From Ignavibacteriota bacterium (GTDB taxonomy: Bacteria; Bacteroidota; Ignavibacteria; UBA10030; CAVZMI01): a stretch of 64,000 bases of DNA. The stretch is from positions 128,001 through 192,000 of the forward strand of contig CAVZMI010000023.1 of the NCBI GenBank assembly GCA_963776275.1, read 5' to 3'. Positions 2,071 to 19,345 of the stretch are shown here, one piece after another. The position numbers were made by a program, and so were the translations under genes. The notes under the pieces are model-generated. The model searched no databases. It was not told the DNA's origin and worked only from the letters and a program-made list of their open reading frames with translations. Position 1 is the first letter of the stretch, and every line of letters begins with the position of its first letter.

Positions 2071-2103
2071 CCTCATTACAGTGACCAGCGGAAGGATAAT
2101 TAA

Positions 2104-3209: not shown

Positions 3210-3323
3210 CCGACAGTCTACTTTCAGAGGTTATTACACACTGCCCGTTTCAAAGTCCCGTTTTTGTGGGCACGTGTATCACAAACTACCTGCGATTGCA
3301 GGTAAGACAAAGGAGAAATTAAA

Positions 3324-4094
3324 ATGGGCATCTTTAGAAATCTTTCGACACACATTTACATGAAGCACATCAGTATGTGTTCTTGCGTTATTATCTCTCT
3401 GTTCATATTGAATGGCTGTAATTCTGAAGAGAAGGATTGGAATCAGACGCAGACTATCAATAAAATCGATAGTTATACTGACTTTATTAAGAAATACCCC
3501 GAAAGCCAATATGTGGATTCCGCAAAAGTGTTAATCAATGAGATAGGAAAAAAGAATAGACTAGAAAAAGTGTTAGCAACTCGAGACATCGATGCATTAA
3601 AAGCATTTGTATCTGATAGTGCAAACGAAGATATATTGAAGCGCTTTAAGATCAAGGCTGGTGATTCAATAACACTTGCTTCACAGCCGGAGAAAGCAAA
3701 AAAGGGCTACCAACTCTCATTAAAGCCCTCAAAAGAACATGGAAATTTTGATTATTTAATATCGATTCCGCCCAATACCAATGTGGATGTTGATTTCAAG
3801 GAAGATGTTCATGTCAAAATCGTAAAGGGAGATCTTGTGGTGTCTATCAAAAACGGTTATACTGCAGGCTATGTTACCACAAACAAAGAAGCAACCTTAT
3901 TAATAAAAGTGAAAGATAATAGAAAAATCATTCTTAGTGCAGAATATGTCAATGTTGACTCTAATATGTTTGTGTATCTGACTGAATCAGAATTTATCAT
4001 TACACGTACAGAAAGTGCGTCGATAAGAAGGGAATTGTTGAAGAACTCCTTTTCCTTATCAAAAGGAGAAATTTATTATGTGAAATTCGACTGA
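3324..4094 (+). CDS. Hypothetical lipoprotein
   Basis: AAGGAG RBS, lipobox LNGC, 'Y..FI.KYP.S.Y...A' helical motif. Confidence 0.7.
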   Translation: MGIFRNLSTHIYMKHISMCSCVIISLFILNGCNSEEKDWNQTQTINKIDSYTDFIKKYPESQYVDSAKVLINEIGKKNRLEKVLATRDIDALKAFVSDSANEDILKRFKIKAGDSITLASQPEKAKKGYQLSLKPSKEHGNFDYLISIPPNTNVDVDFKEDVHVKIVKGDLVVSIKNGYTAGYVTTNKEATLLIKVKDNRKIILSAEYVNVDSNMFVYLTESEFIITRTESASIRRELLKNSFSLSKGEIYYVKFD

Positions 4095-4203
4095 TTTGTT
4101 AGGTCTAAAATGTGAGTAGGTGTAGTTGTGCTTGTATGTCTTCACACAAATTAAAATCATTCAAGCTAAAAATTACTTGAGAATTTTCAAGAGTCACACT
4201 ATG

Positions 4204-4240
4204 CGACAGCTCTACTTCAGGGCTGCCGTTTGATCATTAT
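4204..4240 (+). repeat. Repeat C head only (copy 2)
   Basis: CAGCTCTA..AGGGCTGCCGTTTGATCATTA. Confidence 0.65.
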
Positions 4241-4288
4241 CCTTGTATCGGTTCAGTCCGCCAGCGAACGGCGGGCAGGCGAATCGAC

Positions 4289-5002
4289 CTATAGTTTTTT
4301 CAGATATGACCAGGGCCAATTCTCATAAAAATCGACCAATCCTGCTGAGACAGGATTCATGAGAATATAATCGACGATACGTGATAAATCGTTATCATCT
4401 CTCACTACGTGATCGTAGCTTTCGTTTTGCCAAAAAGCACCATTCCGAATTAGAATGCGGTTTGCCTCACGCGCGGTATAACGTTTCAATGATTGCATTA
4501 TTCGAAATAACGGTGGGCTGTTGTAGGTCGGAATGTCATTCCGACCTACATCGTTTACGGCCGATTCTTCAACTTGATTTGTAGTATTTATTTCAAATAC
4601 CATATGCACATGATTTGGCATGATACAATATGAGAGCAAACCGTATTCTTTCTGATCACGATGATGGATGGATTTTTTCACAATGCTAGCAATTTGCGGA
4701 TCTATCAACCATAGCGGACCTGTTTCGTTTTTATCGAGCAATCTATCGAATCGAGCAAAATAATCATCATTAAATTCCATCCACTCATCCGTTCGGGTTT
4801 TACGATTATCGATTTCTTCGATACGTTTTTTCACCCGTTCACGATCATAGCGCAACTGTTCAATCGCTTCCGCAGGTAAAGACCCTGCTAATCTAAACGT
4901 CACAAAATATGTTGCCTCTGACGGTTGATAGTGCGGGAGGTGGCGGCGATAGTAGAACTTGTCTACCGAGTTAGATTGTAGTGAGTTTATTGTAGTCTTC
5001 AT
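4289..5002 (-). CDS. REP-associated tyrosine transposase (RAYT, Y1/HUH)
   Basis: RRHLPH, YFVTFRL, HUH motif IMPNHVH, FWQNESYDHVVR, YILMNP; start moved to MKTTI. Confidence 0.9.
   Translation of the reverse strand: MKTTINSLQSNSVDKFYYRRHLPHYQPSEATYFVTFRLAGSLPAEAIEQLRYDRERVKKRIEEIDNRKTRTDEWMEFNDDYFARFDRLLDKNETGPLWLIDPQIASIVKKSIHHRDQKEYGLLSYCIMPNHVHMVFEINTTNQVEESAVNDVGRNDIPTYNSPPLFRIMQSLKRYTAREANRILIRNGAFWQNESYDHVVRDDNDLSRIVDYILMNPVSAGLVDFYENWPWSYLKKL
4522..4550. repeat. GTAG REP embedded in frame within the RAYT gene
   Basis: TGTAGGTCGGAATGTCATTCCGACCTACA, a perfect hairpin. Confidence 0.85.
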
Positions 5003-5087
5003 AATAATATGTTGGTATATATATTTACCGTGGGAATAGAGGATTCTGTGACAGTGGATTGTGGATAAGCGAGTCAGGTTGTCGCTT

Positions 5088-5158
5088 TTATGGTCGATTC
5101 GGCGAATCGACCTACATTGTTTACACATTGTAGGTCGGGATGCTATCCCGACCATAAA
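5088..5158. repeat. REP doublet (REPIN-like) upstream of RAYT
   Basis: TGGTCGATTCGGCGAATCGACCTACA...TGTAGGTCGGGATGCTATCCCGACCATA as an inverted pair. Confidence 0.85.
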
Positions 5159-5260
5159 CGGATATGGTCGAATCGGCCCGCCACTACACTCCGGCGCGGG
5201 CACATCCGGCTCGGATTCCCATGGATAAGACCTCTAATCGCTTTATCCGTCTCTCTTTTA

Positions 5261-5418
5261 ATGGCAGTTCTAGGTTAGGGCTGCCGTTTGATTATATGGA
5301 GTGGATTTCGTACCATTCAATTGTACCCACAAGATACATCCGAAAACCAGCGTTGTAGTGAGTCATAAATAATCAAGCTTATCGGTGACACAGCTTAGTG
5401 GCCATCCGTTAGGCGCCC
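5261..5418 (+). repeat. Repeat C copy 3 ending in an attC right arm (R' GTTAGGC at 5408)
   Basis: ...CAGCTTAGTGGCCATCCGTTAGGCGCCC; near-complementary to GGGCAGCCCAAC at 6089-6100. Confidence 0.8.
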
Positions 5419-5435
5419 GCAAGGATAATTTTGTT

Positions 5436-6088
5436 ATGAAGAAGTCCGTATTACTATATATCCTAGTGACACTCATATTTTTGGCTCAGTCCTGTAAAGA
5501 CAAGTCTGTCGAACCAGAAATACCATCTGACATCGCTGTATTCGTCCAAAGCCAGAATCTTCCAAAGGTGCAACCAATTAAGATTTTCCTTGAAATTCAG
5601 CAGGAGAATCTAATAGCCTTTAAGGTTAGCTATGGAGAAGCTCAAGATTGTCAATCGGGTTGTTTCTACAGCATCGCTTATGGCCTCAAGGTGCGGACGA
5701 AGATTGGCTGGCTCCGAATCAACGACTATGACCAGAACGACCTTAGCCATGTCATCAACTACGACTTTGACAGCACTGAAACGATCCTTTTTTCAAATCC
5801 ATTTTGGGATCAATTGAACGCAGCTGATTATTGGGTGTACCGATATGCTTTTCTCCCCTTGCTTGTTAGTGACAAGGACGTCCCTACGAATGTTCTCCAG
5901 CGAATAGCTGAAGGATTATACACGTATATTGATTCTTACTTAGCTTCTTTGTTGCTACTTAATTCAAAGGTTCAGGAAAGTAAGCCATTCTCACACTTCT
6001 TGCGGAATTACCCGTATTTCAGGGTGATGCTTATCAGGAAGTACGAGGAAAGGCTCGCGAACTGCTGAATTCACTTGGAAATGGTTGA
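5436..6088 (+). CDS. Hypothetical lipoprotein (cassette gene; probable frameshift near 5983)
   Basis: MKKSVLL..AQSC lipobox; an alternative frame AILTLLAELPVF...LGNG* ends just before R''. Confidence 0.65.
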
Positions 6089-6100
6089 GGGCAGCCCAAC

Positions 6101-6219
6101 CATTTTAAAAGGAAAGAGTCCCCGCTAAGCGGGATTTCACAAAAAGCGTTCAACAAGTAAATAGTAATCTCCCGATGAATCCGCAACAAGGATATTGACA
6201 ACCGAACACAACCGGCAGC
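6101..6219 (+). repeat. Repeat E copy 2
   Basis: Near-identical to 1951-2070 and again directly after R'' (..CCCAAC). Confidence 0.85.
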
Positions 6220-6241
6220 ACGCGATGACGGACGGCGAGAT

Positions 6242-6388
6242 TTGGTTCCATCACTTTAATCCATACATCTAGCTTCAGGGTTGCTTCTACTTCGATCTAA
6301 AGCCGGGCGGCATCACGAAAGCAGGTTCAAATAGTATTTTCTGTAATATTTTTTGTTGGGAAAATATCGCGGATATATGGGCGAAGGA
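6242..6388 (+). repeat. Repeat D copy 1 (with AT-rich tail)
   Basis: GGTTCCATCACTTTAATCCATACAT..GTTGCTTCTACTTCGATCTAAAGCCGGGCGGCATC. Confidence 0.85.
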
Positions 6389-6523
6389 TCATGGAAGTAA
6401 GACAGGTGTATGATAATAAAAAAAAGCAATTATCATTGGTACATCATTCGGGGGCAGGTCAATCAATAATTTTATAGCGACACTTGATCGGAGACACCTC
6501 AATTGAGAACCAAAAGTGGGAAT

Positions 6524-8998
6524 ATGAATCGAACAGAGATAGATAATTCCAGAAATCGGATGATTATTATTGTCCTCCTGTCGATGTTCGTCGCATTGAC
6601 ACACATTCAGCAATCTCCTGGCCAGACGACGCCATATGCCTGGAAGAGCGTTATCGTCGGTTGCGGAGGATTTGTGCCCGGGATAGTGTACCATCCTGTT
6701 GTGAAGGACCTGATGTATGCCCGCACCGATATCGGTGGCGCTTATCGATGGGATAAATCGATCAGCAAGTGGATACCATTGAACGATGAATTGACGATCA
6801 ACAATCTGGATGCCGAATACATGGGTGTACTTTCCATTGCCGTCGATCGAAATGACACGAATCGCGTTTATATGGAATGCGGGGAATGGACAGAAGCGTG
6901 GGCACAGCCAGGGGCTCTTTTTTCCTCGACAGACAAGGGTAATTCATGGACGATTCATCGATTGTCGGTTAAAATCGGCGGGGATGAGGATGGACGAGGC
7001 GCAGGAGAAAGACTTCAAGTGGATCCGAATTTAAACTCCATTCTTTTCATGGGGACAACAGCCGACGGATTATGGAAATCTACAAACTATGCGTCTACCT
7101 GGACAAGAATTTCTTCCTTCACTCCGACAAATGTGAATTTTGTTTTATTTGATTCGACGGGCGGCTCTTATGGCGACACTACGCAACGTATTTTTGTGGC
7201 CGCTGCCAATACAACCGGTAAAAGTCTGTATCGAAGCGATGACGGAGGTGCTTCATGGAGAGTTGTGGAAGGGCAACCGGGTGGGGTGATGGCGATAAGG
7301 GCGGCTCTCGCCGATAGCATACTCTATATAACGTTTTCAGATTACCCGGGTCCGAACGGTGCAACCGCAGGTTCCGTATGGAAATATAGCATCCCGGTGG
7401 GAAATTGGACGGATATCAGTCCGTCATCAGGTTATTACGGATTCAGCGGCGTTTCTGTTTGCTCCCAAAATCCGGATATTGTCATAGTGAGTACACTCGA
7501 TCGTTGGTCACCGATGGATGAAATATATCTTTCCACAAATGGCGGTGGTACCTGGTCTTCCCGCCTTTCAAATGCCACCATTGATTGTAGCTATGCGAAT
7601 TACAATAAAAATCTGAATCGCGAATGGCTTGCCTGCCTGGAAATAGATCCCTTTGATTCAAGCGGGGCGATGTTCGGAACCGGATACGGAATTTGGGTGT
7701 GTAACGATATCTATGCTTCCACTCCGACATGGTTTTTCAGGGATGAGAATGTGGAAGAAACCCAGACGTTTCAAATCGTCACTCCTCCGTATACAAATCT
7801 TTTATCGGCCATGGGAGACGTTGACGGATTCAGGCATGATAGTCTTGATGTATCTCCGCCGGATAAATACAGTCCGGCAAAATGGTCGACAACGTCCATT
7901 GCGTTCGCTGAAAATGCACCTGAAAAAGTTGTCAAGACTTACAACTCTCCATCCTGGGTTTCAGTCGATCATGGTGCCTACTCACTCGATGGAACGATCA
8001 CGTGGCACGATTTCGATACATGGCCGGCCGGAACATCCGATGGCGGCGTGTGGTCTATCGCACTTTCGGCAGACGGGAGCACTATAGTATGGAGTCCGAT
8101 CGGATCGGTGATGTCATATTCTACAGACGATGGATCAACATGGACGGCCTGTGGCGGCGGTGTCCCACTCATCTCTCCGGTTGCGGATAGGGTCAATACG
8201 GAAAAATTTTATGCTTATGATGGAATAAACGGACAACTATGGATTTCTTCGGATGGTGGAAAAACTTTTCAAAGAGGTGTTGGAAATTTGCCGGATGTTC
8301 CAAGCTGGCTCCCGCAGGACGGAAATATTTCCGCGGTACCGGGTCATGAGGGAGATCTTTGGATTTGCTGCGGCCAGGGCGGACTTTACCGAACTACCAA
8401 CTCGGGCGTAACAGCGACGAAAATTAATGCCGTAACTGCGGCTTATCGTGCAGGATTCGGCAAGGCATTGAATGCGGGTGGTTACCCTTCCATCTATATG
8501 TTTGGAACCGTCAAAAGTGCATTGGGTTTTTTCCGTTCGGATGACATTGGCGCATCATGGACAAGAATCAATGACGACAAGCATCAGTACGGAAAGATTA
8601 ATCAGATTATGGGCGATCCATGGGTTTATGGCAGGTGTTATGTGACACCGGTCGGACGAGGGATATTATATGGAGAACCGGTTGATAGCACATCTACATC
8701 CGTTGAGAGTAAGGGGGTGATTAGCAATATTCCCGCTGAATATGGATTGTTCCAGAATTATCCTAACCCCTTCAATCCGTCGACAACTATTTCTTTTAGC
8801 CTTCCAACACGGTCTTTTGTCTCGCTGAAAGTATTTGATTTGATAGGAAGAGAGGTCGCAACAATTGTCTCGGAAGAATTGTCGGCGGGGAATTACTCGC
8901 GGCAATGGAATGCGACAAATATGCCGAGCGGGATTTACTTTTATCGTTTACAGGCAGGTATATTTACAGAAACGAAGAAACTTGTTTTGCTGAGGTAA
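6524..8998 (+). CDS. GH74 xyloglucanase-like glycoside hydrolase with T9SS CTD
   Basis: GGGFVPGI-like motif, ARTDIGGAYRW and SAMGDVDGF catalytic-Asp regions, RSDD.G.SW Asp-boxes, CTD; exact start uncertain. Confidence 0.85.
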   Translation: MNRTEIDNSRNRMIIIVLLSMFVALTHIQQSPGQTTPYAWKSVIVGCGGFVPGIVYHPVVKDLMYARTDIGGAYRWDKSISKWIPLNDELTINNLDAEYMGVLSIAVDRNDTNRVYMECGEWTEAWAQPGALFSSTDKGNSWTIHRLSVKIGGDEDGRGAGERLQVDPNLNSILFMGTTADGLWKSTNYASTWTRISSFTPTNVNFVLFDSTGGSYGDTTQRIFVAAANTTGKSLYRSDDGGASWRVVEGQPGGVMAIRAALADSILYITFSDYPGPNGATAGSVWKYSIPVGNWTDISPSSGYYGFSGVSVCSQNPDIVIVSTLDRWSPMDEIYLSTNGGGTWSSRLSNATIDCSYANYNKNLNREWLACLEIDPFDSSGAMFGTGYGIWVCNDIYASTPTWFFRDENVEETQTFQIVTPPYTNLLSAMGDVDGFRHDSLDVSPPDKYSPAKWSTTSIAFAENAPEKVVKTYNSPSWVSVDHGAYSLDGTITWHDFDTWPAGTSDGGVWSIALSADGSTIVWSPIGSVMSYSTDDGSTWTACGGGVPLISPVADRVNTEKFYAYDGINGQLWISSDGGKTFQRGVGNLPDVPSWLPQDGNISAVPGHEGDLWICCGQGGLYRTTNSGVTATKINAVTAAYRAGFGKALNAGGYPSIYMFGTVKSALGFFRSDDIGASWTRINDDKHQYGKINQIMGDPWVYGRCYVTPVGRGILYGEPVDSTSTSVESKGVISNIPAEYGLFQNYPNPFNPSTTISFSLPTRSFVSLKVFDLIGREVATIVSEELSAGNYSRQWNATNMPSGIYFYRLQAGIFTETKKLVLLR

Positions 8999-9001
8999 CG
9001 G

Positions 9002-9055
9002 GCCTGCACGCCGAAGGGCTGCGTTTCGGCCCGCAGGCGGGCAACTGCAACTAAC
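9002..9055 (+). repeat. REP-like palindrome followed by an attC R''-like box GCAACTAAC
   Basis: GCCTGCACGCCGAA..TTCGGCCCGCAGGC; GCAACTGCAACTAAC resembles 1935-1950. Confidence 0.6.
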
Positions 9056-9097
9056 ACTTTAACTAAGATCAAAATATCCGCCAGAGATCAGTGGGCA

Positions 9098-9175
9098 TTG
9101 GTTCCATCATTTTAATCCATACATCAAGTCTCTAGAGTTGCTTCTACTTCGATCTATAGCCGGGGCGGCATCGAA
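9098..9175 (+). repeat. Repeat D copy 2
   Basis: Matches 6242-6314. Confidence 0.85.
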
Positions 9176-9466
9176 CATTAAAAATGGTTGCCTTTCGGGG
9201 AGGCGTTTATATTATTAACGTAATCGTTGACGATTTTGTGACAAGCCGGTGAAAGGTAAAATGTACGGTAAGGCGTTATTGTTTGCTTTTTGTCCCGTGT
9301 TTACTTAAAATCGTGGAAATCATCAGCTGTGCATAACTGTAAAAAGACTCCGGCTTCTACTCTATCTATAATAGATATGATTTTTGTATACGGTAATCAG
9401 ATATTTGCAGAAACTTCTTTCATAAAAATTCTTTTCTTCATTTTATCCTAACAGGAAGGCTCTGAG

Positions 9467-10711
9467 ATGAAAAACTTACGAGACTCAAAACTTTTCATCC
9501 CCGCTGTGGTTGTGGCCGCATTGATTATCGGAGGATTATTATTTTATGGCTTATATAAGGTATATATAAGCTATCGGATGCAACACCAGCCCAATATGCG
9601 GATCGTTCTCGAGGTTAATATCCCCATGTTTCTTGAAAGCCAGGCAAAGAATAGCGATGAACCTTTTTCATCTCTATTCAAAGAAATAAAACAGGAAGCG
9701 GAGAGTAATCAAGATTCCGATATAGTGCAGATATTAAAAAGGAAGTTCCAGGAGAAACAAATCCGCATGAGCCGGTATTATGGCTCTATAAGCGACAGCG
9801 ACGATGATATCACCAGAGAGCTACGTATTCAATCAGATGCCGTGGTTGATCGCGATGTAGATATCATCCGCAAGCGGTTGGATCAGTACGGTGTCTATGA
9901 GCCATCCGTTCAGAAAATGGGTCTCAACAGAATCATTGTCAAACTTCCCGTGGCATCGGTGGATGAACATTCCCAGTCGACGATTCGAAGTCTGTTTAAT
10001 ACCGCGTGTCTCGAATTCAAGCTTCTTAAAGACCCTGAAATATCCTATAAGATAATGACGACACTCGATAGATTCCTTGCCGGAAAAGGAATTAACGACT
10101 CGCTGGAAGTCGCCGTTTCCGACAGAATCGCCATGTCTCAGGGCGATACGGCACTGCTTGCAAAATACCATCCTTTCCTCATCATCGCCAGGCCCGATTC
10201 TCACGGTTCAGGAACCGCGTACGTTGCCGAGGACGACAGGGCAAAAATCAATAGAATTCTGAGCCGGGAAGATGTGAAGCTCCTTGTCCCGGATGATGTT
10301 CAGTTCCTCTGGAGCAATAAACCAGCGTTCAACCGTCAGGATGGCCGCCGTTATTACGAACTATTTACAGTAAAGGCAACTCCGGAGCTTACAGGCGGCG
10401 TCATCGTGAATGCTCGCGCTGTCATGGGTGATTCCAGACAACCTGAAGTTACTATGGAAATGAACAGTGAGGGTGCCCGTGAATGGGCCCGCATCACAGG
10501 CGCCAATATCAATAAATGTATGGCAATTATCCTTGATAGCGCAGTATATTCAGCACCGCGCATTTTATCAAAAATAACTGGAGGACGTTCACAGATCACC
10601 GGAATGCAAAGCATCGAAGAGGCAAAAATCCTTGAAATTGTTCTGAAAGAGGGGGCGATTCCTGCACGTCTGGAAATTATCAAGCAGGAAATCGTTGAAC
10701 CTGGAAAATAA
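9467..10711 (+). CDS. Stand-alone SecD periplasmic (P1) domain protein lacking the C-terminal TM helices
   Basis: IIRKRLDQYGVYEP.VQ, ELTGG.I..A, W.RITGANI...AIILD..VYSAP.I...I.GG...ITG; stops at the AIPARLEII..EIV.P position. Confidence 0.8.
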   Translation: MKNLRDSKLFIPAVVVAALIIGGLLFYGLYKVYISYRMQHQPNMRIVLEVNIPMFLESQAKNSDEPFSSLFKEIKQEAESNQDSDIVQILKRKFQEKQIRMSRYYGSISDSDDDITRELRIQSDAVVDRDVDIIRKRLDQYGVYEPSVQKMGLNRIIVKLPVASVDEHSQSTIRSLFNTACLEFKLLKDPEISYKIMTTLDRFLAGKGINDSLEVAVSDRIAMSQGDTALLAKYHPFLIIARPDSHGSGTAYVAEDDRAKINRILSREDVKLLVPDDVQFLWSNKPAFNRQDGRRYYELFTVKATPELTGGVIVNARAVMGDSRQPEVTMEMNSEGAREWARITGANINKCMAIILDSAVYSAPRILSKITGGRSQITGMQSIEEAKILEIVLKEGAIPARLEIIKQEIVEPGK

Positions 10712-10951
10712 TGGCATTCCTCCAACGACTCTAAACAGTGTCCTAAGGGTCACCGAAGGGTGGCGAAAACATGACAACAGGGTGAAGAAATAGTTACAAC
10801 ACGGCATCCCCTTTGCCTATCGAGGATTCGCGCAGGTAGTTCGTCAACCTCCCTATTTGTTATTTCCAATTATTTGTATAATATTCATGTATTGATGGAA
10901 ATAATTGTATCAGGTCGTTACTATTTAAAACCAAAATACAATGGAGGTAAT

Positions 10952-11833
10952 ATGAAAAAAATACTATCCTATGCATTTTCTGCATGCATGCTGATTCTTA
11001 CGCCATGCTCCTTTCTTTACTCACAAATAAACCCCAATGGCGGATTTGAAACCGGATCACCAGGCGAGCATTCAGGTTCAGATGTTGCAGGATGGACAAT
11101 GCTCACCGGCGGCACTGCATCGGCTGTGTTTGAGATTGTAAATGATGCAGGACTTGCTCATTCCGGCAACCAGGCGTTGAGAGTTACAGTGAATGCGATT
11201 GGAAGCAATGCTTGGGAACCACAAGTCTTTAATACTGATTTTCCTGTTACATCGAACACGAAATATGAAGTCTCTGCCTGGGTAGCATCGGAAGTTGAGG
11301 GTGTCGAGATTATTGTCACTGCAGGCAGTTTGAGTCCAAATTATCACGAATGGGGCAGAAAAAGTACCGGTCCCTTAGGTCTTCTTAGCTGGACGCATAT
11401 TACATTTCAATTTACGACAAGAAATCCGGAATCGGAACCAAGAGGAGGTATTCCGATTCACTTTGGTGTAGCAGCTAATAATCAATTTCTTCCGTTTGTG
11501 GTTTATTTGGATGATATAGAAGTCACAAATCTTTCGACCGGAGTTGATGATCAAATATCATCTTTGCCGAAGACATATTCATTGTCACAAAACTATCCGA
11601 ATCCATTTAATCCAAGTACCACAATACAATTCTCACTCCCAAAGGCATCATATGTAACGCTAAATATTTATAACTCTATTGGACAAGAAGTCGCTCAACT
11701 TGTGTCGAAGCAAATGAATCCCGGTACTTATTCAACAGAATGGAATGCATCAGGTTTTGCAAGCGGTGTATACTATTATCGACTAGAGGCTGGCAGTTAC
11801 GTTGAGACAAAGAAACTTGTCTTACTACGCTGA
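10952..11833 (+). CDS. CBM4/9-like carbohydrate-binding secreted protein with T9SS CTD
   Basis: GGAGG RBS, signal peptide, NGGFE..., AHSG..AL, YLDDI, CTD. Confidence 0.8.
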   Translation: MKKILSYAFSACMLILTPCSFLYSQINPNGGFETGSPGEHSGSDVAGWTMLTGGTASAVFEIVNDAGLAHSGNQALRVTVNAIGSNAWEPQVFNTDFPVTSNTKYEVSAWVASEVEGVEIIVTAGSLSPNYHEWGRKSTGPLGLLSWTHITFQFTTRNPESEPRGGIPIHFGVAANNQFLPFVVYLDDIEVTNLSTGVDDQISSLPKTYSLSQNYPNPFNPSTTIQFSLPKASYVTLNIYNSIGQEVAQLVSKQMNPGTYSTEWNASGFASGVYYYRLEAGSYVETKKLVLLR

Positions 11834-11864
11834 AAGAACGGTACATTTTCAGATCAAATCGAAC

Positions 11865-11933
11865 TGATCTGCCCCAAGGGATCCAAAGTATCATGGATTA
11901 AAGTCGGCAATGGGTAAAAAACGACACAGTCAG
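11865..11933 (+). mobile_element. Repeat A copy 3: IS3-family left end with orfA start MGKKRHSQ
   Basis: TGATCTGCCCC..GATCCAAAGTATCATGGATT...ATGGGTAAAAAACGACACAGT. Confidence 0.6.
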
Positions 11934-12111
11934 GTGGCCAATGCTTGATAATGAAAAAAAACTAACTTATCATTGGTACATAAAACGGGAGCAGATCACC
12001 AGAGATTAGCTGGCATACGAAACAACATTTTACCACCTGACTCAAAGCCCCTGTGAATTACTACCATAGAGACAATACTCAATTTTTCATAACAATTAAT
12101 CCTTCTCAACC

Positions 12112-12645
12112 ATGGCACACAACAGGTTTTTCGGACTGAAGAACAATTTGATTTATAAATCTTTTCTGATTCTTTCATTGATTCTTAATTCATCCTCTTT
12201 GTCTGCTCAGTCTCCGACAAATTTCTCAGGAAAATGGGCATTTGATAAGTCTAGAAGTAATCCTGGACAAGGAGGATTATTTCTGGATGGCGATAGAATC
12301 CTTGAAATTACTCAGAATTCTACCTCGATAATATTTGCAGAAACCCTGATTCGCGAGGGTGACGAAGATATTAAAAATGTTGACACATTCAACTTTGATG
12401 GGAAAGAGAAAATTGTGAAGGGAGATTTTGGAACGACAAAAAATACTTTAAAATGGTCAGAAGACAAAAAGATACTTACGGTAACAACTATAATGACGAC
12501 CGTCTCTAAAGGAATTTCAGAGGATTACCTTGTCGCTGATTCTTACAAACTATCTAACGATGGACGTACTTTGACAATTGAATCGTATTCTAAAAATCGG
12601 GCGACCGGAGAAAGAACAATCACAATGGTATACAATAAAAAATAA
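12112..12645 (+). CDS. Hypothetical secreted beta-barrel (lipocalin-like) protein
   Basis: Signal peptide, NFSGKW.FDKS.S, Y.LS.DG.TLTI, VY.K. Confidence 0.7.
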   Translation: MAHNRFFGLKNNLIYKSFLILSLILNSSSLSAQSPTNFSGKWAFDKSRSNPGQGGLFLDGDRILEITQNSTSIIFAETLIREGDEDIKNVDTFNFDGKEKIVKGDFGTTKNTLKWSEDKKILTVTTIMTTVSKGISEDYLVADSYKLSNDGRTLTIESYSKNRATGERTITMVYNKK

Positions 12646-12733
12646 AATAACCTGGATCTCGAGCAAAATAAAATACACCAGCTAATACAGATAATATAGT
12701 AAACACACTTGCCACAGTTTTTTACATCCAGCA

Positions 12734-12866
12734 TTGATTCCATCATTTTAATCCATACATGTACGCTTCAGAGTTGCTTCTACTTCGATCTAAAGCCCGG
12801 GCGGCATCACGAATTCAGGAGGGGCTGGCATTTTCTATAATATTTTTATTGGATAAATATATCGCC
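12734..12866 (+). repeat. Repeat D copy 3 (tail contains TATAAT)
   Basis: Matches 6242-6370. Confidence 0.85.
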
Positions 12867-12958
12867 CTAGAGGCGGCATCCTTATGAATAATTACCATTC
12901 CACAAACATCGTAAAAAGATAAACGATTACGATTGGTGAAAAGACATTCGTCCGTAAT

Positions 12959-13153
12959 TTGCCAAAGCCGTTTACTCACGCAGTTATCGGGCATAAAGCG
13001 GGTAAGGAGATTGAGTGCGTGAAGTGGTGCGCTTCAGCTGAGTTAGCACAGGAACAAGCTGAGATTCATACACAGGCAGGATATGTGGACATGCAGATTC
13101 TACAGTTTGAGATATCGAAATATGTCAAGGAGTATGTGCCTGGGAAATCCTAA
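12959..13153 (+). CDS. Small hypothetical protein
   Basis: 64-aa ORF on the array strand; no motif recognised. Confidence 0.35.
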   Translation: MPKPFTHAVIGHKAGKEIECVKWCASAELAQEQAEIHTQAGYVDMQILQFEISKYVKEYVPGKS

Positions 13154-14150
13154 TCGATCAGTTATGTCTATTGAGGCATTTGCTAAAAATATTTGGTCTG
13201 TAACAACCTCATATATCCCAATCGGTATCCACCAATCATTGATGATGGCTAGCCATAATAAACCCAAAAAACCTGTAAGGAATCCTGTGGTTTATGTTCT
13301 CCCGAAGAAAGGGCCAGGATATCCAAAGGAAGAACAGATGCCCAGAGTTCAAGAGGAACTAGAACTCACGGTAGGAAAAAAATTTGTCGGTGCGCTCAAA
13401 CATTTTAAAGGTATTGAATTGCACGATCTGCATCATGGTCCTGAACCAGCAGATTTGATTTGTCAAACGGCGGAAGGGGATCAAATTGCGATACAAGTAG
13501 TTGAGGTGGTTGATCTACAACTGCGTCAAGTTGATGACATGCGAGCATCCTACCGAAATGCTTTAGTAAAAACCTTAGATAAAAATCTGCTACTATACAA
13601 TGGATGCCGGGTCACATTGTGCGACAGTGGAGAGCCACCTTATCTTCCAAAGGTCAGCACACCACAAGGACAGGTCTGTCTAATGAGGATTGCTCATTCA
13701 ATATTGGAGATGGCGAAAGGTGTTGATACGCTCGATATCGGTGGATATAAAGGAATACGGGTAAAAATATTTAATCCTAAACGCTCAATAAGTATTGGAG
13801 TGGAACGTGTTATTCCAGCTGCCGACCCAGTGCGATTAGAGTTTACATGGACTGGTGGCGGTCCAGCATATTACTCTGATAAATCACGTGGATTGCTTAC
13901 TAGAGCGGTGCAAACAAAATTAGCAAAGCATTATGTGAAGCCTAATATCGGAAAGTTTATTCTGTTGCTCTATTCGATAGACTTCTCCTTAGAGATGGAT
14001 GAGTTAGATCTTCGTGATGCAAGGCAATTACTCAATTCAGCCAAACACCCATTTGATGACGTTTGGTTCATCTATTTATATCCTCAAGAGGAGTTAGGAG
14101 CGCTCACACTTATTTGGCCACTCAAGGATAAAGAGATTATGATAGTCTGA
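13083..14150 (+). CDS. Hypothetical protein, possible PD-(D/E)xK-like fold (true start probably ~13240)
   Basis: PEPADLIC...IAIQVVE; C-terminal K..KHY....LLLYS, FDDVWF. Confidence 0.6.
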   Translation: MWTCRFYSLRYRNMSRSMCLGNPNRSVMSIEAFAKNIWSVTTSYIPIGIHQSLMMASHNKPKKPVRNPVVYVLPKKGPGYPKEEQMPRVQEELELTVGKKFVGALKHFKGIELHDLHHGPEPADLICQTAEGDQIAIQVVEVVDLQLRQVDDMRASYRNALVKTLDKNLLLYNGCRVTLCDSGEPPYLPKVSTPQGQVCLMRIAHSILEMAKGVDTLDIGGYKGIRVKIFNPKRSISIGVERVIPAADPVRLEFTWTGGGPAYYSDKSRGLLTRAVQTKLAKHYVKPNIGKFILLLYSIDFSLEMDELDLRDARQLLNSAKHPFDDVWFIYLYPQEELGALTLIWPLKDKEIMIV

Positions 14151-14166
14151 ATGAAAGAAATTTATC

Positions 14167-14397
14167 ATGAAAAAGAACATTCACGTTGTTCCAGACGATG
14201 GAAAATAGTCAGTGAAAAAGGAAGGTAAATCAACTCCGATATCTACTCACCGAACCCAGGAATTGGCACGCCATAATGCAGTGCCACTAGCAAAGCAGAA
14301 CGAATCAGAAGTGGTCATCCATGGAAAAGACGGAAAGATTCGCGACAAGGATAGCTATGGGAATGATCCGAATCCGCCGAAGGATAAAAAACACTGA
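14167..14397 (+). pseudogene. DUF2188-family protein with a premature TAG
   Basis: MKKNIHVVPDDGK*SVKKEG...EVVIHGKDGKIRDKDSYGNDP; TAG at 14206 where the family has Trp. Confidence 0.75.
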
Positions 14398-14428
14398 GGA
14401 CTAGCGATTATTATTGAAAGGAGACAGT

Positions 14429-14851
14429 ATGGCAGACTGTGAGATCGACCTGAACAGATTAGATGAACTTATAGCAAGTCGGGGGCTCATTGGTCTCAAG
14501 GCTTTGCTGAACCAGGCTCGAAACGCTATCAGTTCTGGTGGAAGAGTTATTGTACAACGCACCTATATAAATGTGCCACCAGATGTCGAAAAGGTGATTA
14601 CACACTTAGATGATCTCGAAACTTGGAGAAAAATAATTACTCCTATTCCTCTAAAAGTTTTCCTGTGTCCTCTTTGTAATAAATCTCTTACCATAATGGA
14701 TGAGGAAGAGTCTAAAGCTTACAGATTAAAATGTTATGATCCCCCCGGATGTGGGTCCATTTATATATTGGCTATGGGGATTCCTCTCAGACTGATGAAA
14801 CTCGATGTCGACGGTGGGCCAGAAATACCATATCCAGCAAATGAGCAATGA
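14429..14851 (+). CDS. Hypothetical protein with a C-terminal Zn ribbon
   Basis: AAGGAG RBS; CPLC...C.....C. Confidence 0.6.
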   Translation: MADCEIDLNRLDELIASRGLIGLKALLNQARNAISSGGRVIVQRTYINVPPDVEKVITHLDDLETWRKIITPIPLKVFLCPLCNKSLTIMDEEESKAYRLKCYDPPGCGSIYILAMGIPLRLMKLDVDGGPEIPYPANEQ

Positions 14852-14924
14852 GTATATACCACATTGATTTAAGCTGAGCAATCCCGATTAACCAATGATG
14901 AAGATATAGTTATCCGCCTCCCGT

Positions 14925-15240
14925 TCGGCAGCTCTAGTTATTAGTTATTATGGTTGCCGTTTGATTATTAGTAGCTGTTTGCTTACTTTCAATTGTTCCT
15001 ACGAAATACATCCGACAACCAGCGTTGTAGTGAGTCATAGATAGAGATTCAGATATTCGAGCAAGATATTAATCACAACTAATCATTGCCGCAGTCCGAT
15101 CCCGCTTATGCGGGATCGAGATCTCGTCCCGACTTCCCTCGACCCGCCTTCGGCGGGCTCGGGACAGGTCGTCGGGACGGACTTATTTATCCGCCGGAGT
15201 GTTATTTACGTAGGCGGAGCGGCCATCCGTTAGGCGGCCA
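14925..15240 (+). repeat. Repeat C copy 4 plus repeat B inserted in the attC L' box, R' GTTAGGC at 15229
   Basis: ...TGCCGCAG[B 15093-15218]AGCGGCCATCCGTTAGGCGG. Confidence 0.8.
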
Positions 15241-15262
15241 ACCTAAAACGAGGATTCAAACA

Positions 15263-15838
15263 ATGGATATACCTTACTTCAATGGTCTTTCATGGAAGGA
15301 TCTCTCGCGTGATGAGCGATTCTATTGTTTTTGTCTTTATCAAAATGCACAAGACAGTCCCAGGCAATTTGCGGAATTGGTAGCAGAGAAGGCTGGTTTG
15401 AACATCGAATCGACAGATGATTGGGACATCGCTGTTGAAGTGTGTTTTTATCGAGACTATTTGTGGCACAAAGGGAAACCTGTTCATGGTTCGGGTTTCT
15501 CTCCCAAACGCACCTTCGACCTTTGCTTGTTCAGTCCAAACACTATCATCATCATTGAAGCAAAGGTTGATCAGCCATTTGACGCCGAGCAAAATAAAGT
15601 TTTTGCAGAAGACGCAAAGAAAATTCGCAAATTGCTCAAGAATGAAACGATCAAGATTTATTTGGTTGCTTTAGCATCCTCAAAATATTTCAGGGCTGAT
15701 ACGAATAACGGTAACGGAAATTCGCTACTTCCATTTGACGGGCACATTTCGTGGTCTGACATGTACCAAAAATATGGAAATGCAATCTTGAGTCAAGCCG
15801 AGAATTTGTATGGATCGGATGTGCGCAAACTCACTTGA
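15263..15838 (+). CDS. PD-(D/E)xK nuclease-family protein
   Basis: AGGA RBS; RTFDLCLF...IIIIEAK motif. Confidence 0.7.
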   Translation: MDIPYFNGLSWKDLSRDERFYCFCLYQNAQDSPRQFAELVAEKAGLNIESTDDWDIAVEVCFYRDYLWHKGKPVHGSGFSPKRTFDLCLFSPNTIIIIEAKVDQPFDAEQNKVFAEDAKKIRKLLKNETIKIYLVALASSKYFRADTNNGNGNSLLPFDGHISWSDMYQKYGNAILSQAENLYGSDVRKLT

Positions 15839-15877
15839 TGGATTGCCGCACGTTAACACTATCCAGAAGGTGCCATA

Positions 15878-16405
15878 ATGGATATTTATGAAGAGCAGGA
15901 ATGCCAAGATAGTATATTCAAAATAAATTCATTATTGAATTGTAGCATTTTCGATGTTGTTAATTCTGGCAATATATTACAATCCGCTGCTTTCATTGAG
16001 TTAATAATATGTCTTCGTGACCTTCTGCATAAGACGGAAAAGTACGCGAAGCGCATCTCGTTTACCGACGACATCATAATGAATGAATATGTTCATGATA
16101 TAACCGATGCTGTCACTGCTACTCGGGATGCTTGTTGCCATCTCGATTCTTTCAAGCGGGTATTTGATGACCAGGGAAATAGAGGATCTTTTAACGTTAT
16201 CTATGGCAAAGGCTATTTCGCTAAGTTTGGTGATGTGGAAATGAAGTCCGAGTATGAGGACGATACTGCTGTCTATTACGGTAAGAATCGTCTTTATATC
16301 AAACGTCACATTGTTCGGGCCTTTAGAGAAGCTACAACTCTTCTCATGCCGATTCTTACAGGAAAGGATATTAATAATGGCACACCTGCTGACTGCTCAA
16401 TCTGA
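15878..16405 (+). CDS. Putative HEPN-like protein
   Basis: Helical N-terminal half with RxxxxH motif (RDACCH). Confidence 0.55.
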   Translation: MDIYEEQECQDSIFKINSLLNCSIFDVVNSGNILQSAAFIELIICLRDLLHKTEKYAKRISFTDDIIMNEYVHDITDAVTATRDACCHLDSFKRVFDDQGNRGSFNVIYGKGYFAKFGDVEMKSEYEDDTAVYYGKNRLYIKRHIVRAFREATTLLMPILTGKDINNGTPADCSI

Positions 16406-16433
16406 CAAGTGTAAACTGCAGGTCCTCATAAAT

Positions 16434-16725
16434 CTGGTTCCATCACTTTAATCCATACATCGAGGCTCCAGAGTTGCTTCTACTTCGATCTAAAGCCGGG
16501 CGGCATCGGACATTTTTTGTTGGGAAAAAAGCGGATTTATGGGCAAAAGGTTAGGGCTGCCGTTTGATTCTTAGCAGCTGATTGCTTACTTTCAATTGTT
16601 CACCCAAAGATACATCCGACAACCGGCGTTGTATTGAGTCATAGATAGAGATTCAGCTTTTTTGATCCAGATATTTGGGCGACGTGGTAATCAAACTGAT
16701 CAAGGCGACATCTTAGCCGAAATCC
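16434..16725 (+). repeat. Repeat D copy 4 fused to repeat C copy 5 (attC right arm truncated before R')
   Basis: D 16434-16550, then GTTAGGGCTGCCG...GCGACATCTTAGCCGAAATCC. Confidence 0.8.
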
Positions 16726-16900
16726 CTCTTACTGCACATTAGAGCAAGATATTATATTTTCAAAAAGTGCAAAAGGGTAGTTAGTAGAAATTGCATAAAT
16801 GATATATACGCTAAATATAATTTCTCTTTTTTAGTGGTCATAATAAAGTTGTCTATTGGGGAGAAGAACTATTGTGAATATTTGAAGGAGGAACTGTATT

Positions 16901-18199
16901 ATGGAAACAATAACTGGGAAACTATTAACATATACTAAATGGATTGTAATCACTCTAATTGTACTAGCAATTATCATCACTGCATGGAACTTCTTTTTAA
17001 TAAAGGCAACATACGATTATATCTTTCAATATCTTGCTTCCAGTATTGGATTAAATATTTGGTTAATTAGGATAATATCAATTGCATTTAGTCTGTTGGT
17101 TCTTATTTATGGAATAAAATGGTTATGGAGAGTATTATCACCGTCACCGTTAATTAAGTCGAAAGAAAGAAATAATGCTCTTCTAGGCTTGAGTGCTTTA
17201 TTAATATTATTTTGCTTAATGATGTGGTTTTTTACAAAGAATGACATTTATAATAAAATTGGGGAAGCCCAAAAATGTTATGCGGCAACACCCGATGGTT
17301 ATGAATATGTTGATTGCAGTTATAAAGTTCACCCGATCTATGGAACAGAGGTAAAACATGTGACCCCTGAAATTGCGATTATTATTGAAGACAAAAGAAT
17401 ATCTGAAGTGACGAGAATCGTGCCTAATAGAAATTTTAGATTTTTCTCTCCAGATGGCCGATCACTAATTTATTACTATAAGCGTCCTAACGAGAAACTT
17501 GAGTTTTTCTTTCAACCTGGTAGGCATCCTCAATTTAATGAAGAGTTACTGCCCATTACTCCAGAGATTGTGAAACAACTGTTTGAATACTACGAAAATG
17601 GAAAAGACTCAATGATTATCGGGAATGATATTAAGGATAATATTTTGAAAGCTCAAAAAGAATTTGAAACGAAATATAATGAAAATAGTATTAAACAAGG
17701 GACACAAGTCGATATTTATGAATCTTACATTAACCCATCAATAACAAACTCTGGTACGAGTACAGATGTGTCTGTAACTATTGTTGATGAGAATGGTAAT
17801 AATATTGCTTCTGTTTCGAGTGCTATTGCTAATGTTTACAATCAGACTGGGAAAAAAGGGAATACAGGCTTGTTGAGAAGCTCATTTATTCATAAAGCAG
17901 GATTCCAAGAATTGTATGAAGGCAACTCTGATATAATTACAAAATTAAAATTAAGTAGCCACACTGATTATTTGGCAATTGGCAAAATTAAATACTCGAT
18001 GCGACAGGGAACATTGGTTGAAGGGACAATAATTTGTACCGTTTCCCTTGCCATGAACATAATATCAGTTAATAGCAAAACACTAACTAAGAGCTTTTCA
18101 TTTTCAGTTAATGGTAATGGGGCAACAGAATTCCAAGCGAAAGAAGAAGCGGATAAAATACTGGTGAACGTGTATTACAACGAATATTCATCATTATAA
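16901..18199 (+). CDS. Hypothetical membrane protein (3 N-terminal TMs plus a large soluble domain)
   Basis: AAGGAGG RBS; hydrophobic segments; AT-rich. Confidence 0.75.
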   Translation: METITGKLLTYTKWIVITLIVLAIIITAWNFFLIKATYDYIFQYLASSIGLNIWLIRIISIAFSLLVLIYGIKWLWRVLSPSPLIKSKERNNALLGLSALLILFCLMMWFFTKNDIYNKIGEAQKCYAATPDGYEYVDCSYKVHPIYGTEVKHVTPEIAIIIEDKRISEVTRIVPNRNFRFFSPDGRSLIYYYKRPNEKLEFFFQPGRHPQFNEELLPITPEIVKQLFEYYENGKDSMIIGNDIKDNILKAQKEFETKYNENSIKQGTQVDIYESYINPSITNSGTSTDVSVTIVDENGNNIASVSSAIANVYNQTGKKGNTGLLRSSFIHKAGFQELYEGNSDIITKLKLSSHTDYLAIGKIKYSMRQGTLVEGTIICTVSLAMNIISVNSKTLTKSFSFSVNGNGATEFQAKEEADKILVNVYYNEYSSL

Positions 18200-18201
18200 G
18201 G

Positions 18202-19116
18202 TTGAAGAAAATGAAAATAACTATTCACTTATTTATTCTTTTATTTGTTGTTTCTATATCATTATCGCAAAGCGCATTTGATAAATCGATCAACGAGGCA
18301 AGTGCTGATCTTGCTGAAAAGTTAATACGAAAGAATAAAATGAAAATAGCGGTCGTTTGTGTCACCGAGATAAATAAAGAAGAAACAGTTGTTGGGAAAT
18401 ATATAGCCGATGAAATATCAGTAAACATCGTTAACGGTACCGGGGATTTTGAGGTTTTTGATAGAGAAAGTTTATCTGGAATCACACAAGTAAAAAAATT
18501 AGTTGCAGAAGGCTACATCAACGTTTATAAGGCAAAAGAATTAGGGAAATTATTATCAGTCGAAGCAATTATTATTGGTAATTATACAGTAAAAAATAAT
18601 ACAATAAAGCTCACTTTATCAGCTTACAATTCATATTCTGGATTAGTAATTGCTTCGACCCACAAAGATTTACCTATAGACTCAGATGCCGGAGCATTAC
18701 TAGGTATTAACGTGGAAACAAATGGCAAAAGAAATAATTCTAATCGTGGATTCAATAATCGTCCAATAAATTCAAATGAAGATTATAATAATCCAAGAAC
18801 TGTCAGTCCCGACTGTAAAAAAAATAATACAGGAGATTACTGTTTTACAAATACTATGACGAAGACACCATTTACGGTAATAGTGTACTATCGCGAAAAT
18901 TCAAACGCAGGTCGTACAATGACAGTTCAAGCGGGTCAAACTCAATGTTTCAATAATTTCCCTGCTGGTCCGCATAATTATACTATTACCTATAAAGCAC
19001 AAGTCCCTATCATGAAGTTTCCCCCTGGTGCACCTACGATGGAACAAGATGTAATTTACTTACAAGGTCAAATAAATGTTGAGCAATGCAAATCTAAAAC
19101 ATTTGTTATAAAATGA
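18202..19116 (+). CDS. Secreted FlgO/CsgG-like domain protein
   Basis: Signal peptide; F.VFDRE.L, AKELGKLLSVEAIIIG.Y. Confidence 0.65.
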   Translation: MKKMKITIHLFILLFVVSISLSQSAFDKSINEASADLAEKLIRKNKMKIAVVCVTEINKEETVVGKYIADEISVNIVNGTGDFEVFDRESLSGITQVKKLVAEGYINVYKAKELGKLLSVEAIIIGNYTVKNNTIKLTLSAYNSYSGLVIASTHKDLPIDSDAGALLGINVETNGKRNNSNRGFNNRPINSNEDYNNPRTVSPDCKKNNTGDYCFTNTMTKTPFTVIVYYRENSNAGRTMTVQAGQTQCFNNFPAGPHNYTITYKAQVPIMKFPPGAPTMEQDVIYLQGQINVEQCKSKTFVIK

Positions 19117-19129
19117 AGTTCGCAATCTC

Positions 19130-19317
19130 GCCTATCCATAAAGATAAAGCTAGTATATAATTAAAAAGAGCATAAAAGAAATAAATCAAGCAGAGATTGC
19201 GATCATGTTGAAAAGTTGAGATGTAACGCGAGATTGAATGTACAGTGAATATATTTGTCCCGGATAGTACAAGCCAAGAAATTATCGTCGCCGCAGCTTA
19301 GCGCCCATCCGTTATAC
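19130..19317 (+). repeat. Long attC site (left arm decayed)
   Basis: GCCTATCCATAAGATAAAGCT ... GCCGCAGCTTAGCGCCCATCCGTTATAC. Confidence 0.7.
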
Positions 19318-19345
19318 GGCATTTGTAAAGAAATAGCATTTAAAT

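Follow-up and report, generated by a model that had tools for sequence, protein, structure and literature searches.

Repeat D, an intergenic element family with covarying helices in one order of Ignavibacteria

What is a short intergenic sequence doing in four near-identical copies among the secreted-protein genes of an Ignavibacteriota bacterium? The copies lie in a stretch of 64,000 nucleotides (positions 128,001 to 192,000 of contig CAVZMI010000023.1, GenBank assembly GCA_963776275.1), which as a whole is called the window throughout, with positions numbered from its first letter. The sequence, repeat D, had been picked out in a preliminary description made from the letters, which reported four structured copies (D1 to D4) and wondered whether they represented a structured RNA, a portable promoter, a recombination site or something reminiscent of an IS110 bridge RNA. 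Comparative analysis indicates that repeat D belongs to a family of non-coding elements, so far undescribed, in a single order of Ignavibacteria. The family is new, whereas its kind, the conserved structured intergenic element, is familiar; unusual, and testable, is its tie to a gene for a minimal protein resembling extracytoplasmic function (ECF) sigma factors. As to its role, we lean, with a little less than even confidence, towards a module, acting in cis as a leader or close to the promoter, that controls the genes downstream. We favour this because the helices show compensatory changes, the core is invariant, the distance to a T-tract is conserved, copies tend to share the orientation of the gene that follows and the sigma-like gene is linked to the element.

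An element family with two covarying helices

The four copies, ~85 bp each and all on the + strand, were where the preliminary description had placed them: the 14-mer TTTAATCCATACAT occurs exactly four times in the window (mean expected 1.07) and the 20-mer GTTGCTTCTACTTCGATCTA four times without mismatch (mean expected 0.01), counts equalled in none of 100 shuffles in either case. A BLAST search with copy 1 against its own assembly gave pairwise identities of 89–95% across ~75 nt, with unrelated flanks, and added a fifth copy on the − strand of another contig (C20:154409-154483), so that this genome holds five copies and a second genome of the same genus (the congener) seven. Alignment bore out both the concentration of variation in the central ~11 nt and the AT-rich tail, and the copies have more downstream sequence in common than had first been listed.

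A first covariance model, built from 12 close copies, matched weaker relatives in other families of the order; a second (model R2), which carries two helices, P1 and P2, was then run on 151 genomes of the order. It located repeat D in 23 of the 151, from five of the nine families, at one to seven copies each; outside this genus most copies are single rather than arrayed. Beyond the order, a sample of 151 genomes of the class gave one weak case only. When one genome per species was scanned for the pattern, 34 loci came up, and 16 of them pass the model; all 16 lie in metagenome-assembled genomes, obtained from peat and comparable sources, that bear the labels Ignavibacteriales, Ignavibacteriota or ‘Bacteroidota’. 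The other 18 were chance matches in unrelated phyla that fail the model. A link to phage was also considered and dropped, as neither of two pattern matches on viral contigs passes the model. The gathering-score search of the window against Rfam release 15 returned two tRNAs only, nothing reached an E-value of 10 at the copies when positions 5900-17000 were searched, and eight distant loci gave a single tRNA. No relevant paper on noncoding RNA or RNA motifs of Ignavibacteria was found in open text, with subscription journals and supplementary files lying outside the search.

In the family consensus, drawn from 54 aligned copies (53 distinct rows), a 7-bp helix, P1, closes a loop of ~20 nt (varying from ~19 to ~33 nt) that contains a conserved TTTAAGCCTTAC. 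Between P1 and P2 lies an almost invariant, single-stranded core, CTTCTACTTCGA, and the linker ends in a nearly invariant CTTCTACT-TCGA; P2 itself consists of an outer stem, TCGAT/ATCGA, around a variable inner hairpin. In distant copies, what had been described as the variable central segment proves to be the 3′ strand of P1, with the GGTTCC end of the element as its 5′ strand. P1 occurs in different versions between lineages (GAGCCTC/GAGGCTC, GGGTCCC/GGGACTCC and TGGGTCC/GGATCCA); among 25 copies, cognate halves pair at −7.0 kcal/mol and non-cognate halves at −5.8 kcal/mol (permutation p 0.01).

Covariation, for which the preliminary description had proposed a covariance model, is present in both P1 and P2. 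Paired cells amount to 76.0% of the 54-copy alignment, against 65.6% after shuffling (none of 500 shuffles came up to the observed figure) and at most 56.3% with slid partners, in an alignment that was fitted to the model and favours structure, a point that tells against the leader reading. Changes on both sides are seen at 13 of the 15 pairs, and the covariation score is 0.336, compared with a maximum of 0.139 with slid partners.

A side observation concerns the approach to P1. On the reverse strand of locus L026, at ~1300-1340, three direct repeats with a 12-nt period (AGAGGACCCAAT / ATGGGACCCAAA / ATGAGCCTCGTC) lead into the helix; other genomes have one or two such units, and the model then takes ATGGGACCC as the 5′ strand of P1.

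The conserved core could conceivably be read as protein, (S/C)FYFD, and the element would then be a coding remnant or a small open reading frame (ORF), such as a leader peptide, starting from an ATG just 5′ of P1. Such an ATG exists in 30 of the 54 copies, and two distant copies yield similar 29-residue peptides, MSLVHLSLTERLRSCFYFDVKTSRHHESW and xSLKRLSLTSSLRCCFYFDLKTARHIQSW (the latter, in L030, with TTG as start). However, only 11 of these 30 frames run through the core, and another 11 meet a stop codon within 5-12 codons. The codons TTC TAC TTC GAT hardly vary at their third positions, and no long ORF reads into the element. In the window copies the ATG is missing, and their frames are offset from one another by a 1-nt indel. 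We regard a coding origin as scarcely credible; a decayed protein-coding fragment, which the preliminary description had named as the finding to set against its own suggestions, was looked for and not found.

The linked sigma-like gene and the case for a leader

Each window copy is preceded by the stop codon of a co-oriented ORF 25-170 nt upstream and followed by the next ORF 181-386 nt downstream. The claim that the element always lies just 3′ of a gene therefore holds in the window; in the family it does not, since the upstream gene is divergent at 14 of the 54 copies (36 co-oriented; 4 with none within 1 kb), and this excludes ‘tail of the upstream gene’ as a general reading. Nor did the upstream ORFs of 175-230 aa in this genus prove to be one family: their mutual identity is 13–22% and they are unrelated to the sigma-like proteins described below. 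Taking the nearest ORF of at least 110 aa within 1 kb downstream, 37 copies face a co-oriented gene, 8 a convergent gene and 9 none, with a median gap of 328 nt. Cargo of the type IX secretion system (T9SS) or proteins with Sortilin repeats form a recurring share of the products of these downstream genes, beside defence and accessory proteins; Sortilin/BNR proteins, an S8 peptidase with a T9SS domain and a WYL regulator are also among them. A T-run follows within ~100 nt of the match in 51 of the 54 copies, at a median distance of 23 nt and a mode of 22-27 nt.

At 8 of the 54 copies, an intact, co-oriented gene for a protein of ~165 aa lies within 600 nt upstream, and at least three more copies keep its 3′ end and terminator as remnants. 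The protein has no Pfam match. Its C-terminus is weakly similar to helix-turn-helix (HTH) chains of the LuxR/FixJ type (E-values 0.1-1.7), and TIGR02937 (sigma-70, ECF) matches two of eight family members (best E-value 4e-4). An AlphaFold model (predicted local distance difference test, pLDDT, 64) consists of two helical domains joined by a disordered linker, and all of the top ten Foldseek hits to this model are ECF sigma factors (best E-value 0.013, probability 0.98). As judged from the predicted fold, the protein looks like an ECF sigma factor. Within the same 151 genomes of the order, its gene is found in 15 of the 23 element-positive and 6 of the 128 element-negative genomes—a co-occurrence among related, non-independent genomes, which is an association rather than a test of the link, and a point against the leader reading. 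A search of this genome and of the congener found the sigma-like gene in neither.

The sigma-like family (L037:934-1428, L030:1676-2173 on the − strand, L107:2412-2903 and relatives) shows 58–67% identity to its first member, in L037, and occurs in 21 of the 151 genomes at up to five copies per genome, some with internal stops. Just 5′ of the ribosome-binding site, an inverted repeat, CTTATACC..GGAATAAG, was seen in all seven sigma-gene upstream regions read; the CTTATACC box recurs in ~8 of the 54 element flanks. The box was set aside, since counts in three genomes showed no enrichment of the exact 10-mer TTCTTATACC (5, 12 and 8 occurrences, against 22, 28 and 11 for the control). It may be the radC promoter on the opposite strand. 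A divergent radC gene is a recurring left-hand neighbour of the element, confirmed with Pfam in L026, L027, L034 and L113 and inferred from homology to L034 in L101 and L105. No ECF-type −35/−10 pair could be placed consistently in the element, and a sigma-54 promoter was discarded because, in the alignment, GG-N10-GC fits copy 4 only.

On the leader reading, the full form of the element heads a co-oriented transcription unit, often directly behind the small ECF-sigma-like gene or opposite the radC operon of an island resembling an integrative and conjugative element (ICE). The element would most likely be transcribed as part of the leader, its hairpins and T-tract providing a conditional stop or processing signal, and the linked sigma-like regulator would control transcription that enters or crosses it. 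In this genome and the congener, which are without the sigma-like gene, copies that have shed the 5′ part and P1 persist at the junctions of species-specific T9SS cargo gene blocks and would supply a common upstream module, while their ~90% identity as direct repeats would let recombination shuffle the secreted-protein blocks. The earlier idea of a portable promoter survives to this extent: the gene context and the T-run at its fixed distance are compatible with a role as promoter or leader. The reduced copies of this genome, with neither P1, the upstream box nor the sigma-like gene, may act differently from the full form, or only as upstream sequence or recombination substrate.

Several observations weigh against a leader. 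One concerns the window copies themselves, which fold no better than dinucleotide shuffles (85-nt copies; z from +0.09 to +1.80 on the + strand and from −0.58 to +1.10 on the − strand). Across the copies of the same-genus genomes G000 and G001, P1 is Watson–Crick paired in only 15 of 77 cells, and within this genome and the congener a usable P1 is confined to copy 4 and to the copies near tRNA genes. With P1 mostly gone and folding at the level of shuffles, the window copies are reduced forms of the family in which P1 is largely lost. The earlier word ‘structured’ thus applies to the small 3′ hairpin and, through the two covarying helices, to the 54-copy family, and not to the folding of the window copies. 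RNAalifold on the 12 close copies retains three pairs only, those of the 3-bp inner hairpin; a long-range pairing of the A- and T-rich ends of the element, seen in single-sequence folds, was not retained and was set aside.

The hairpin before the T-run is likewise no more stable than shuffles (mean z −0.23), and a terminator scan calls none of the four window P2 hairpins, although it does call a hairpin at 9189-9205 after D2; a classical attenuator is therefore weakly supported. Further points against the leader are the eight copies that face a convergent gene, the mixture of functions downstream (T9SS cargo, NYN, a PIN pair, Cas6, an MmeI-like enzyme, ferritin and LacI) and the eight element-positive genomes, this one included, that are without the sigma-like gene. 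In one genus, moreover, what comes after the element is a strong terminator, without a gene.

This last arrangement would suit a stand-alone family of small regulatory RNAs (‘sibling sRNAs’), in which P1, an exposed seed CUUCUACUUCGAU and P2 with a U-tract as the 3′ end would act in trans; in this genome such RNAs might be released from the 3′ untranslated regions of upstream genes. The conserved core is single-stranded, as a seed would be, and copies are less folded than shuffles. In five aligned copies of the subtype found in genus g21 and relatives (L025, L028, L031, L083 and, in weakened form, L097) a strong terminator hairpin stands ~100 nt after the element, and no co-oriented gene is listed after the elements of L025, L028 and L083, while L031 and L097 do have one. 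Over the family, the 8 of 54 copies with a convergent gene and the 9 of 54 with none within 1 kb fall easily into place, as does a number of one to seven copies per genome. In D4 and four same-genus copies, P2 runs directly into T6, 25-150 nt past the upstream stop codon. Yet this hairpin with its T-run makes a weak terminator (−7.0 kcal/mol, z +0.74), no conserved promoter precedes the window copies, and a bias of 37 to 8 towards co-oriented downstream genes is not what an RNA acting in trans would call for. We consider a small RNA unlikely, while keeping it as a serious competitor.

A second serious competitor, equally unlikely in our estimate, would dispense with the RNA altogether. Here the inverted repeats and the core would be protein sites 5′ of a T-rich core promoter, with transcription of the element unneeded; the sites would possibly be operators or activator sites for the linked sigma-like protein or an HTH protein. 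Wobble pairs bear on this directly. An attempt to read the folding strand from them failed, as the helices contain equal numbers of G-U and A-C cells (77 and 70); pairing therefore gives no strand preference, and a DNA-level inverted repeat fits equally well, as expected if neither strand folds, which is a further point against the leader. The strong conservation of the core at the level of sequence, its position beside a predicted DNA-binding sigma-like protein with which the element co-occurs, and the further palindromes that adjoin it (GAAATCGATTTC, CCAGAATTTTTTCTGG and ATATC-N3-GATAT in the downstream block called module 2) are also in keeping with protein sites. So is the fixed distance to the T-run, which often continues as TAGATTT... 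The TAnnTTTG box is a promoter element of Bacteroidota, which TAGATTT.. seems to resemble. On the other side, the half-sites of P1 change together between lineages, which for a protein site would need a co-evolving protein; the variation in P1 loop length also sits badly with protein sites. Within the genus, the spacer to the T-run is either present or deleted, breaking any fixed promoter geometry, and a scan for sigma-70-type promoters found 33 where 31.6 were expected, no enrichment. In our assessment the small-RNA and DNA-level explanations are each about half as likely as the leader.

Mosaic gene blocks and neighbouring repeats in the window

The four copies differ in their tails and in what follows them. 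D1 (6238..6322, +; 84.5 bits with model R2) has its core, GTTGCTTCTAC, at 6280-6290 and its P2 hairpin, TTCGAT..GCC-GGGC-GGC..ATCACGAA, at 6291-6319; the 3′ strand of P1 is degenerate. Its tail (6323..6397, +) comprises a spacer of ~26 nt (AGGTTCAAATAGTATTTTCTGTAATA), a T-run from 6349 and module 2, TTGGGAAAATATCGCGGATATATGGGCGAAGG, which together have the look of a promoter-like or operator-like region 5′ of the ORF at 6503-8998, encoding a Sortilin-repeat protein with a T9SS sorting domain. D2 (9094..9180, +) has a perfect 6-bp outer P2 stem (TTCGAT/ATCGAA) and is without module 2; after the terminator-like hairpin already mentioned (9189-9205) come genes for a SecDF-P1-like protein and a carbohydrate-binding-module protein with a T9SS domain. 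D3 (12730..12816, +) has a degenerate P1 and a spacer, TATAAT at 12835-12840 and a T-run from 12843. D4 (16430..16515, +) is the top match to the family model among the window copies, at 98 bits, and partly retains P1 (GGTTCC with GAGGCTC; duplex −10.6 kcal/mol). With the spacer deleted (‘type b’), D4 is the only window copy in which P2 leads directly into the T-run (16513-16518); its tail (16513..16675, +) consists of module 2 (16513-16549) fused to a copy of repeat R5 (16548-16675), 5′ of the ORF at 16901-18199. The proteins encoded downstream of D3 and D4 have no Pfam matches.

The ~26-nt spacer is present in copies 1, 3 and the fifth and missing from copy 4; the T-run and module 2 come next in either case. 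A conserved second block, TTTTTTGTTGGGAAAATATCGCGGATATATGGGCGAAGG, stands in the tails of copies 1, 4 and the fifth and, more weakly, of copy 3; the tail of copy 2 is different.

Repeat D is one of several intergenic repeat families of the region, the others being R1, R2, R4 and R5, and the orders in which they combine vary. R4 (123 bp; 93% identical) is found directly 5′ of D1 (6098..6219, +) and at 1948-2070; it starts with a terminator-like hairpin, CCCCGCTAAGCGGG, and contains TTGACA. R4 runs directly into D at one place in the window and at two in the congener; D+R5 is seen at D4 and at two places in the congener. R5 (~100-140 bp; 81–95% identical) lies at 3037-3178, 5263-5378, 14948-15089 and 16548-16675, opens with a hairpin, GGCAGCTC..GGGCTGCC, and precedes the ORFs at 3324, 5385, 15086 and 16901 by 0-230 nt; it has no Rfam match, and several contigs of the same-genus genome hold more copies. 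The further short repeats R1 and R2 account for 256-315, 2863-2922 and 22698-22759, for 370-443 / 15123-15196 and for 15192-15236; the last of these, a 45-nt piece, is found again, 93–98% identical, in the same-genus genome, where at least five contigs carry it. Apart from these families, self-matches offset by 78 bp (77–84% identity) mark a tandem repeat with a period of ~78 bp at 41297-41603.

The window and the congener are homologous in mosaic fashion, in blocks that stop at the 3′ edge of the element (6314 and 12808). For the genes in the D2–D3 and D3–D4 intervals the congener, a genome 99% complete, has no counterpart, save for a paralogous stretch of 73% identity and short repeats. On metagenome contigs from peat and soil, R4 is joined to D4 and D3 to the tail of D1. 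A comparison of four metagenome runs with positions 1-20000 of the window gave contigs that break at the repeats, with mosaic joints only and no clean insertion or deletion alleles. From these comparisons, repeat D appears as a marker of the junctions of species-specific secreted-protein gene blocks in this genome.

The element might then be what the preliminary description had also suggested, a recombination site or cassette boundary, served in trans by a dedicated recombinase as in integrons, or a hot spot of homologous recombination. Four direct copies spaced 2.9-3.7 kb apart, bounding gene blocks that the congener is without, homology that stops exactly at the element and the metagenome joints are all in line with this. 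So are tRNA genes within ~250 nt of three copies and, in genome G124, an element at the border between conserved backbone and variable genes. The homology breaks stand as observed, but they support a recombination site only indirectly, because ordinary homologous recombination between repeats would give the same: RecA-type exchange alone predicts block ends at the repeat. Direct repeats of 75-150 bp with ~90% identity would permit it, with no dedicated recombinase required. The window holds no recombinase gene (PF00589 has seven matches in the genome and none in the window), and the nearest tyrosine recombinase, at C23:235771, lies 44 kb past the window end. The blocks are of one to four genes, and copies in other genomes are mostly single. 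A dedicated recombination site is in our view improbable.

The contexts just mentioned have their own detail. In G124, three copies each end a repeated block of 5.8 kb, and each is followed by different small genes and then by a gene for an MmeI-like restriction enzyme. The block (4396-10211 of L114, with near-copies in L115 and L116 that are 88–95% identical) encodes Mu Gam-like, ATP-dependent DNA ligase, WGR, DUF932, clamp-like and RadC proteins. The block resembles the leading or anti-restriction region of an integrative conjugative element, an ICE-like island whose cargo hot spot would lie just 3′ of the element. The tRNA genes lie 170-250 nt from three copies (downstream of the copies in L019 and L020, and at 1850-1933 in L028); they are co-oriented at the fifth copy of this genome and at that of the congener, and convergent in G040.

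That the arrangement is not attC-like, as first noted, was upheld. Repeat D shares with attC arrays and with clusters of attC sites lacking integron-integrases (CALIN) the direct, co-oriented repeats between differing gene blocks and a variable central part. It differs in having no full-length imperfect palindrome, no R and L core sites and no nearby integrase, in its multi-gene blocks and in its high primary conservation. Neither RYYYAAC nor GTTRRRY stands at the ends of the element, which are GGTTCCATC and GGCATCGAA; the sole GTT, in mid-element GTTGCTT, misfits RRR. Neither strand of the 85-nt copies outdoes shuffles in folding (z −0.58 to +1.80), and end-to-end pairing was not seen.

Dispersal among so many mosaic repeats (R1, R2, R4 and R5) also raises the thought of a selfish or neutral repeat without host function, akin to a miniature inverted-repeat transposable element (MITE) or a repetitive extragenic palindromic (REP) sequence. 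The patchy distribution (23 of 151 genomes), the presence of several copies and the closer likeness of copies within than between genomes would be natural in such a repeat. Against it, the core stays the same in five families of the order, the helices are kept by compensatory change, copies are biased in orientation towards downstream genes and no transposase is linked. A MITE was rejected because neither terminal inverted repeats nor target-site duplication could be seen in the flanks, which were inspected in alignments of 13 and of 54 copies. A REP or REPIN identity, which the preliminary description had rightly discounted, does not suit a unit of 85 nt or more that is mostly unpaired and whose array copies are all direct; no search for RAYT genes was made. 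We hold a selfish repeat to be improbable as well, a shade more so than a dedicated recombination site.

The mosaic setting has a closer parallel in the NIMEs (RS/dRS3 repeats), neisserial mosaic intergenic repeats found near surface-protein genes. There too, as with D, R1, R2, R4 and R5, unrelated short families stand in varied orders between genes for secreted or surface proteins and are shuffled between close relatives. Repeat D, by contrast, is without dRS3-like flanking inverted repeats. Its family is deep and spans the order, its helices covary and a regulator gene is linked to it, traits that are not known for NIME units.

Known systems and the meaning of the element

Cis-acting leaders that set transcriptional read-through include the put RNAs of phage HK022, the EAR element of Bacillus eps operons and the signals of the LoaP and RfaH type. 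Like repeat D, they are short, conserved two-hairpin elements that head co-oriented operons of surface, secreted or acquired genes, with T-rich or hairpin signals after them. No relation of repeat D to them was found in sequence or in Rfam, and its putative partner resembles an ECF sigma factor rather than a NusG paralogue. Many of its copies have no downstream gene; a co-oriented one is present at 37 of 54, and the functions are mixed.

Also comparable are ECF regulons in which the target promoter adjoins the sigma gene and, as a distant analogue, the dCas12f-sigmaE systems of RNA-guided transcription in Bacteroidota (PMC12259090). In these too, within the same wider phylum, the gene of a small ECF-like sigma factor is linked both to a non-coding element and to envelope or secreted-protein genes. 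Repeat D differs in that no Cas12f- or TnpB-like gene adjoins it, no anti-sigma gene follows the sigma-like gene, no ECF −35/−10 pair can be placed and this genome is without the sigma-like gene.

The impression of an IS110 bridge RNA is not supported. The likeness lies in a superficial conserved/variable/conserved layout; repeat D is much shorter, forms two simple hairpins only and stands beside no IS110 (DEDD) gene at any copy. In this genome PF01548 matches at C7:21361 and at C23:223068, 31 kb past the window end, and beside none of the five copies. Among five element-bearing genomes searched, one (G054, with three copies of repeat D) has no PF01548 match.

A bolder form of the leader reading, more doubtful in our estimate than either the small-RNA or the DNA-level explanation, is that the element and the minimal ECF-like sigma gene form an undescribed two-part control unit, in which a structured leader or small RNA partners a private sigma factor. 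If true, the element would be either the dedicated promoter-leader of the sigma factor or an RNA that gates it. The unit would then work as a ‘plug’ that puts newly acquired blocks of secreted-protein and defence genes under common control in Ignavibacteria, and the orphan arrays in this genome would be what remains after loss of the sigma gene.

To our knowledge, almost no regulatory RNAs or promoter architecture have been described for Ignavibacteria. A covarying element tied to a sigma-like gene and placed 5′ of T9SS cargo and defence genes would offer a concrete way into the control of secreted proteins and foreign genes in this class. As a marker of break-points in a hypervariable locus for surface and secreted proteins, repeat D may also prove useful for following strain variation in peat and soil metagenomes.

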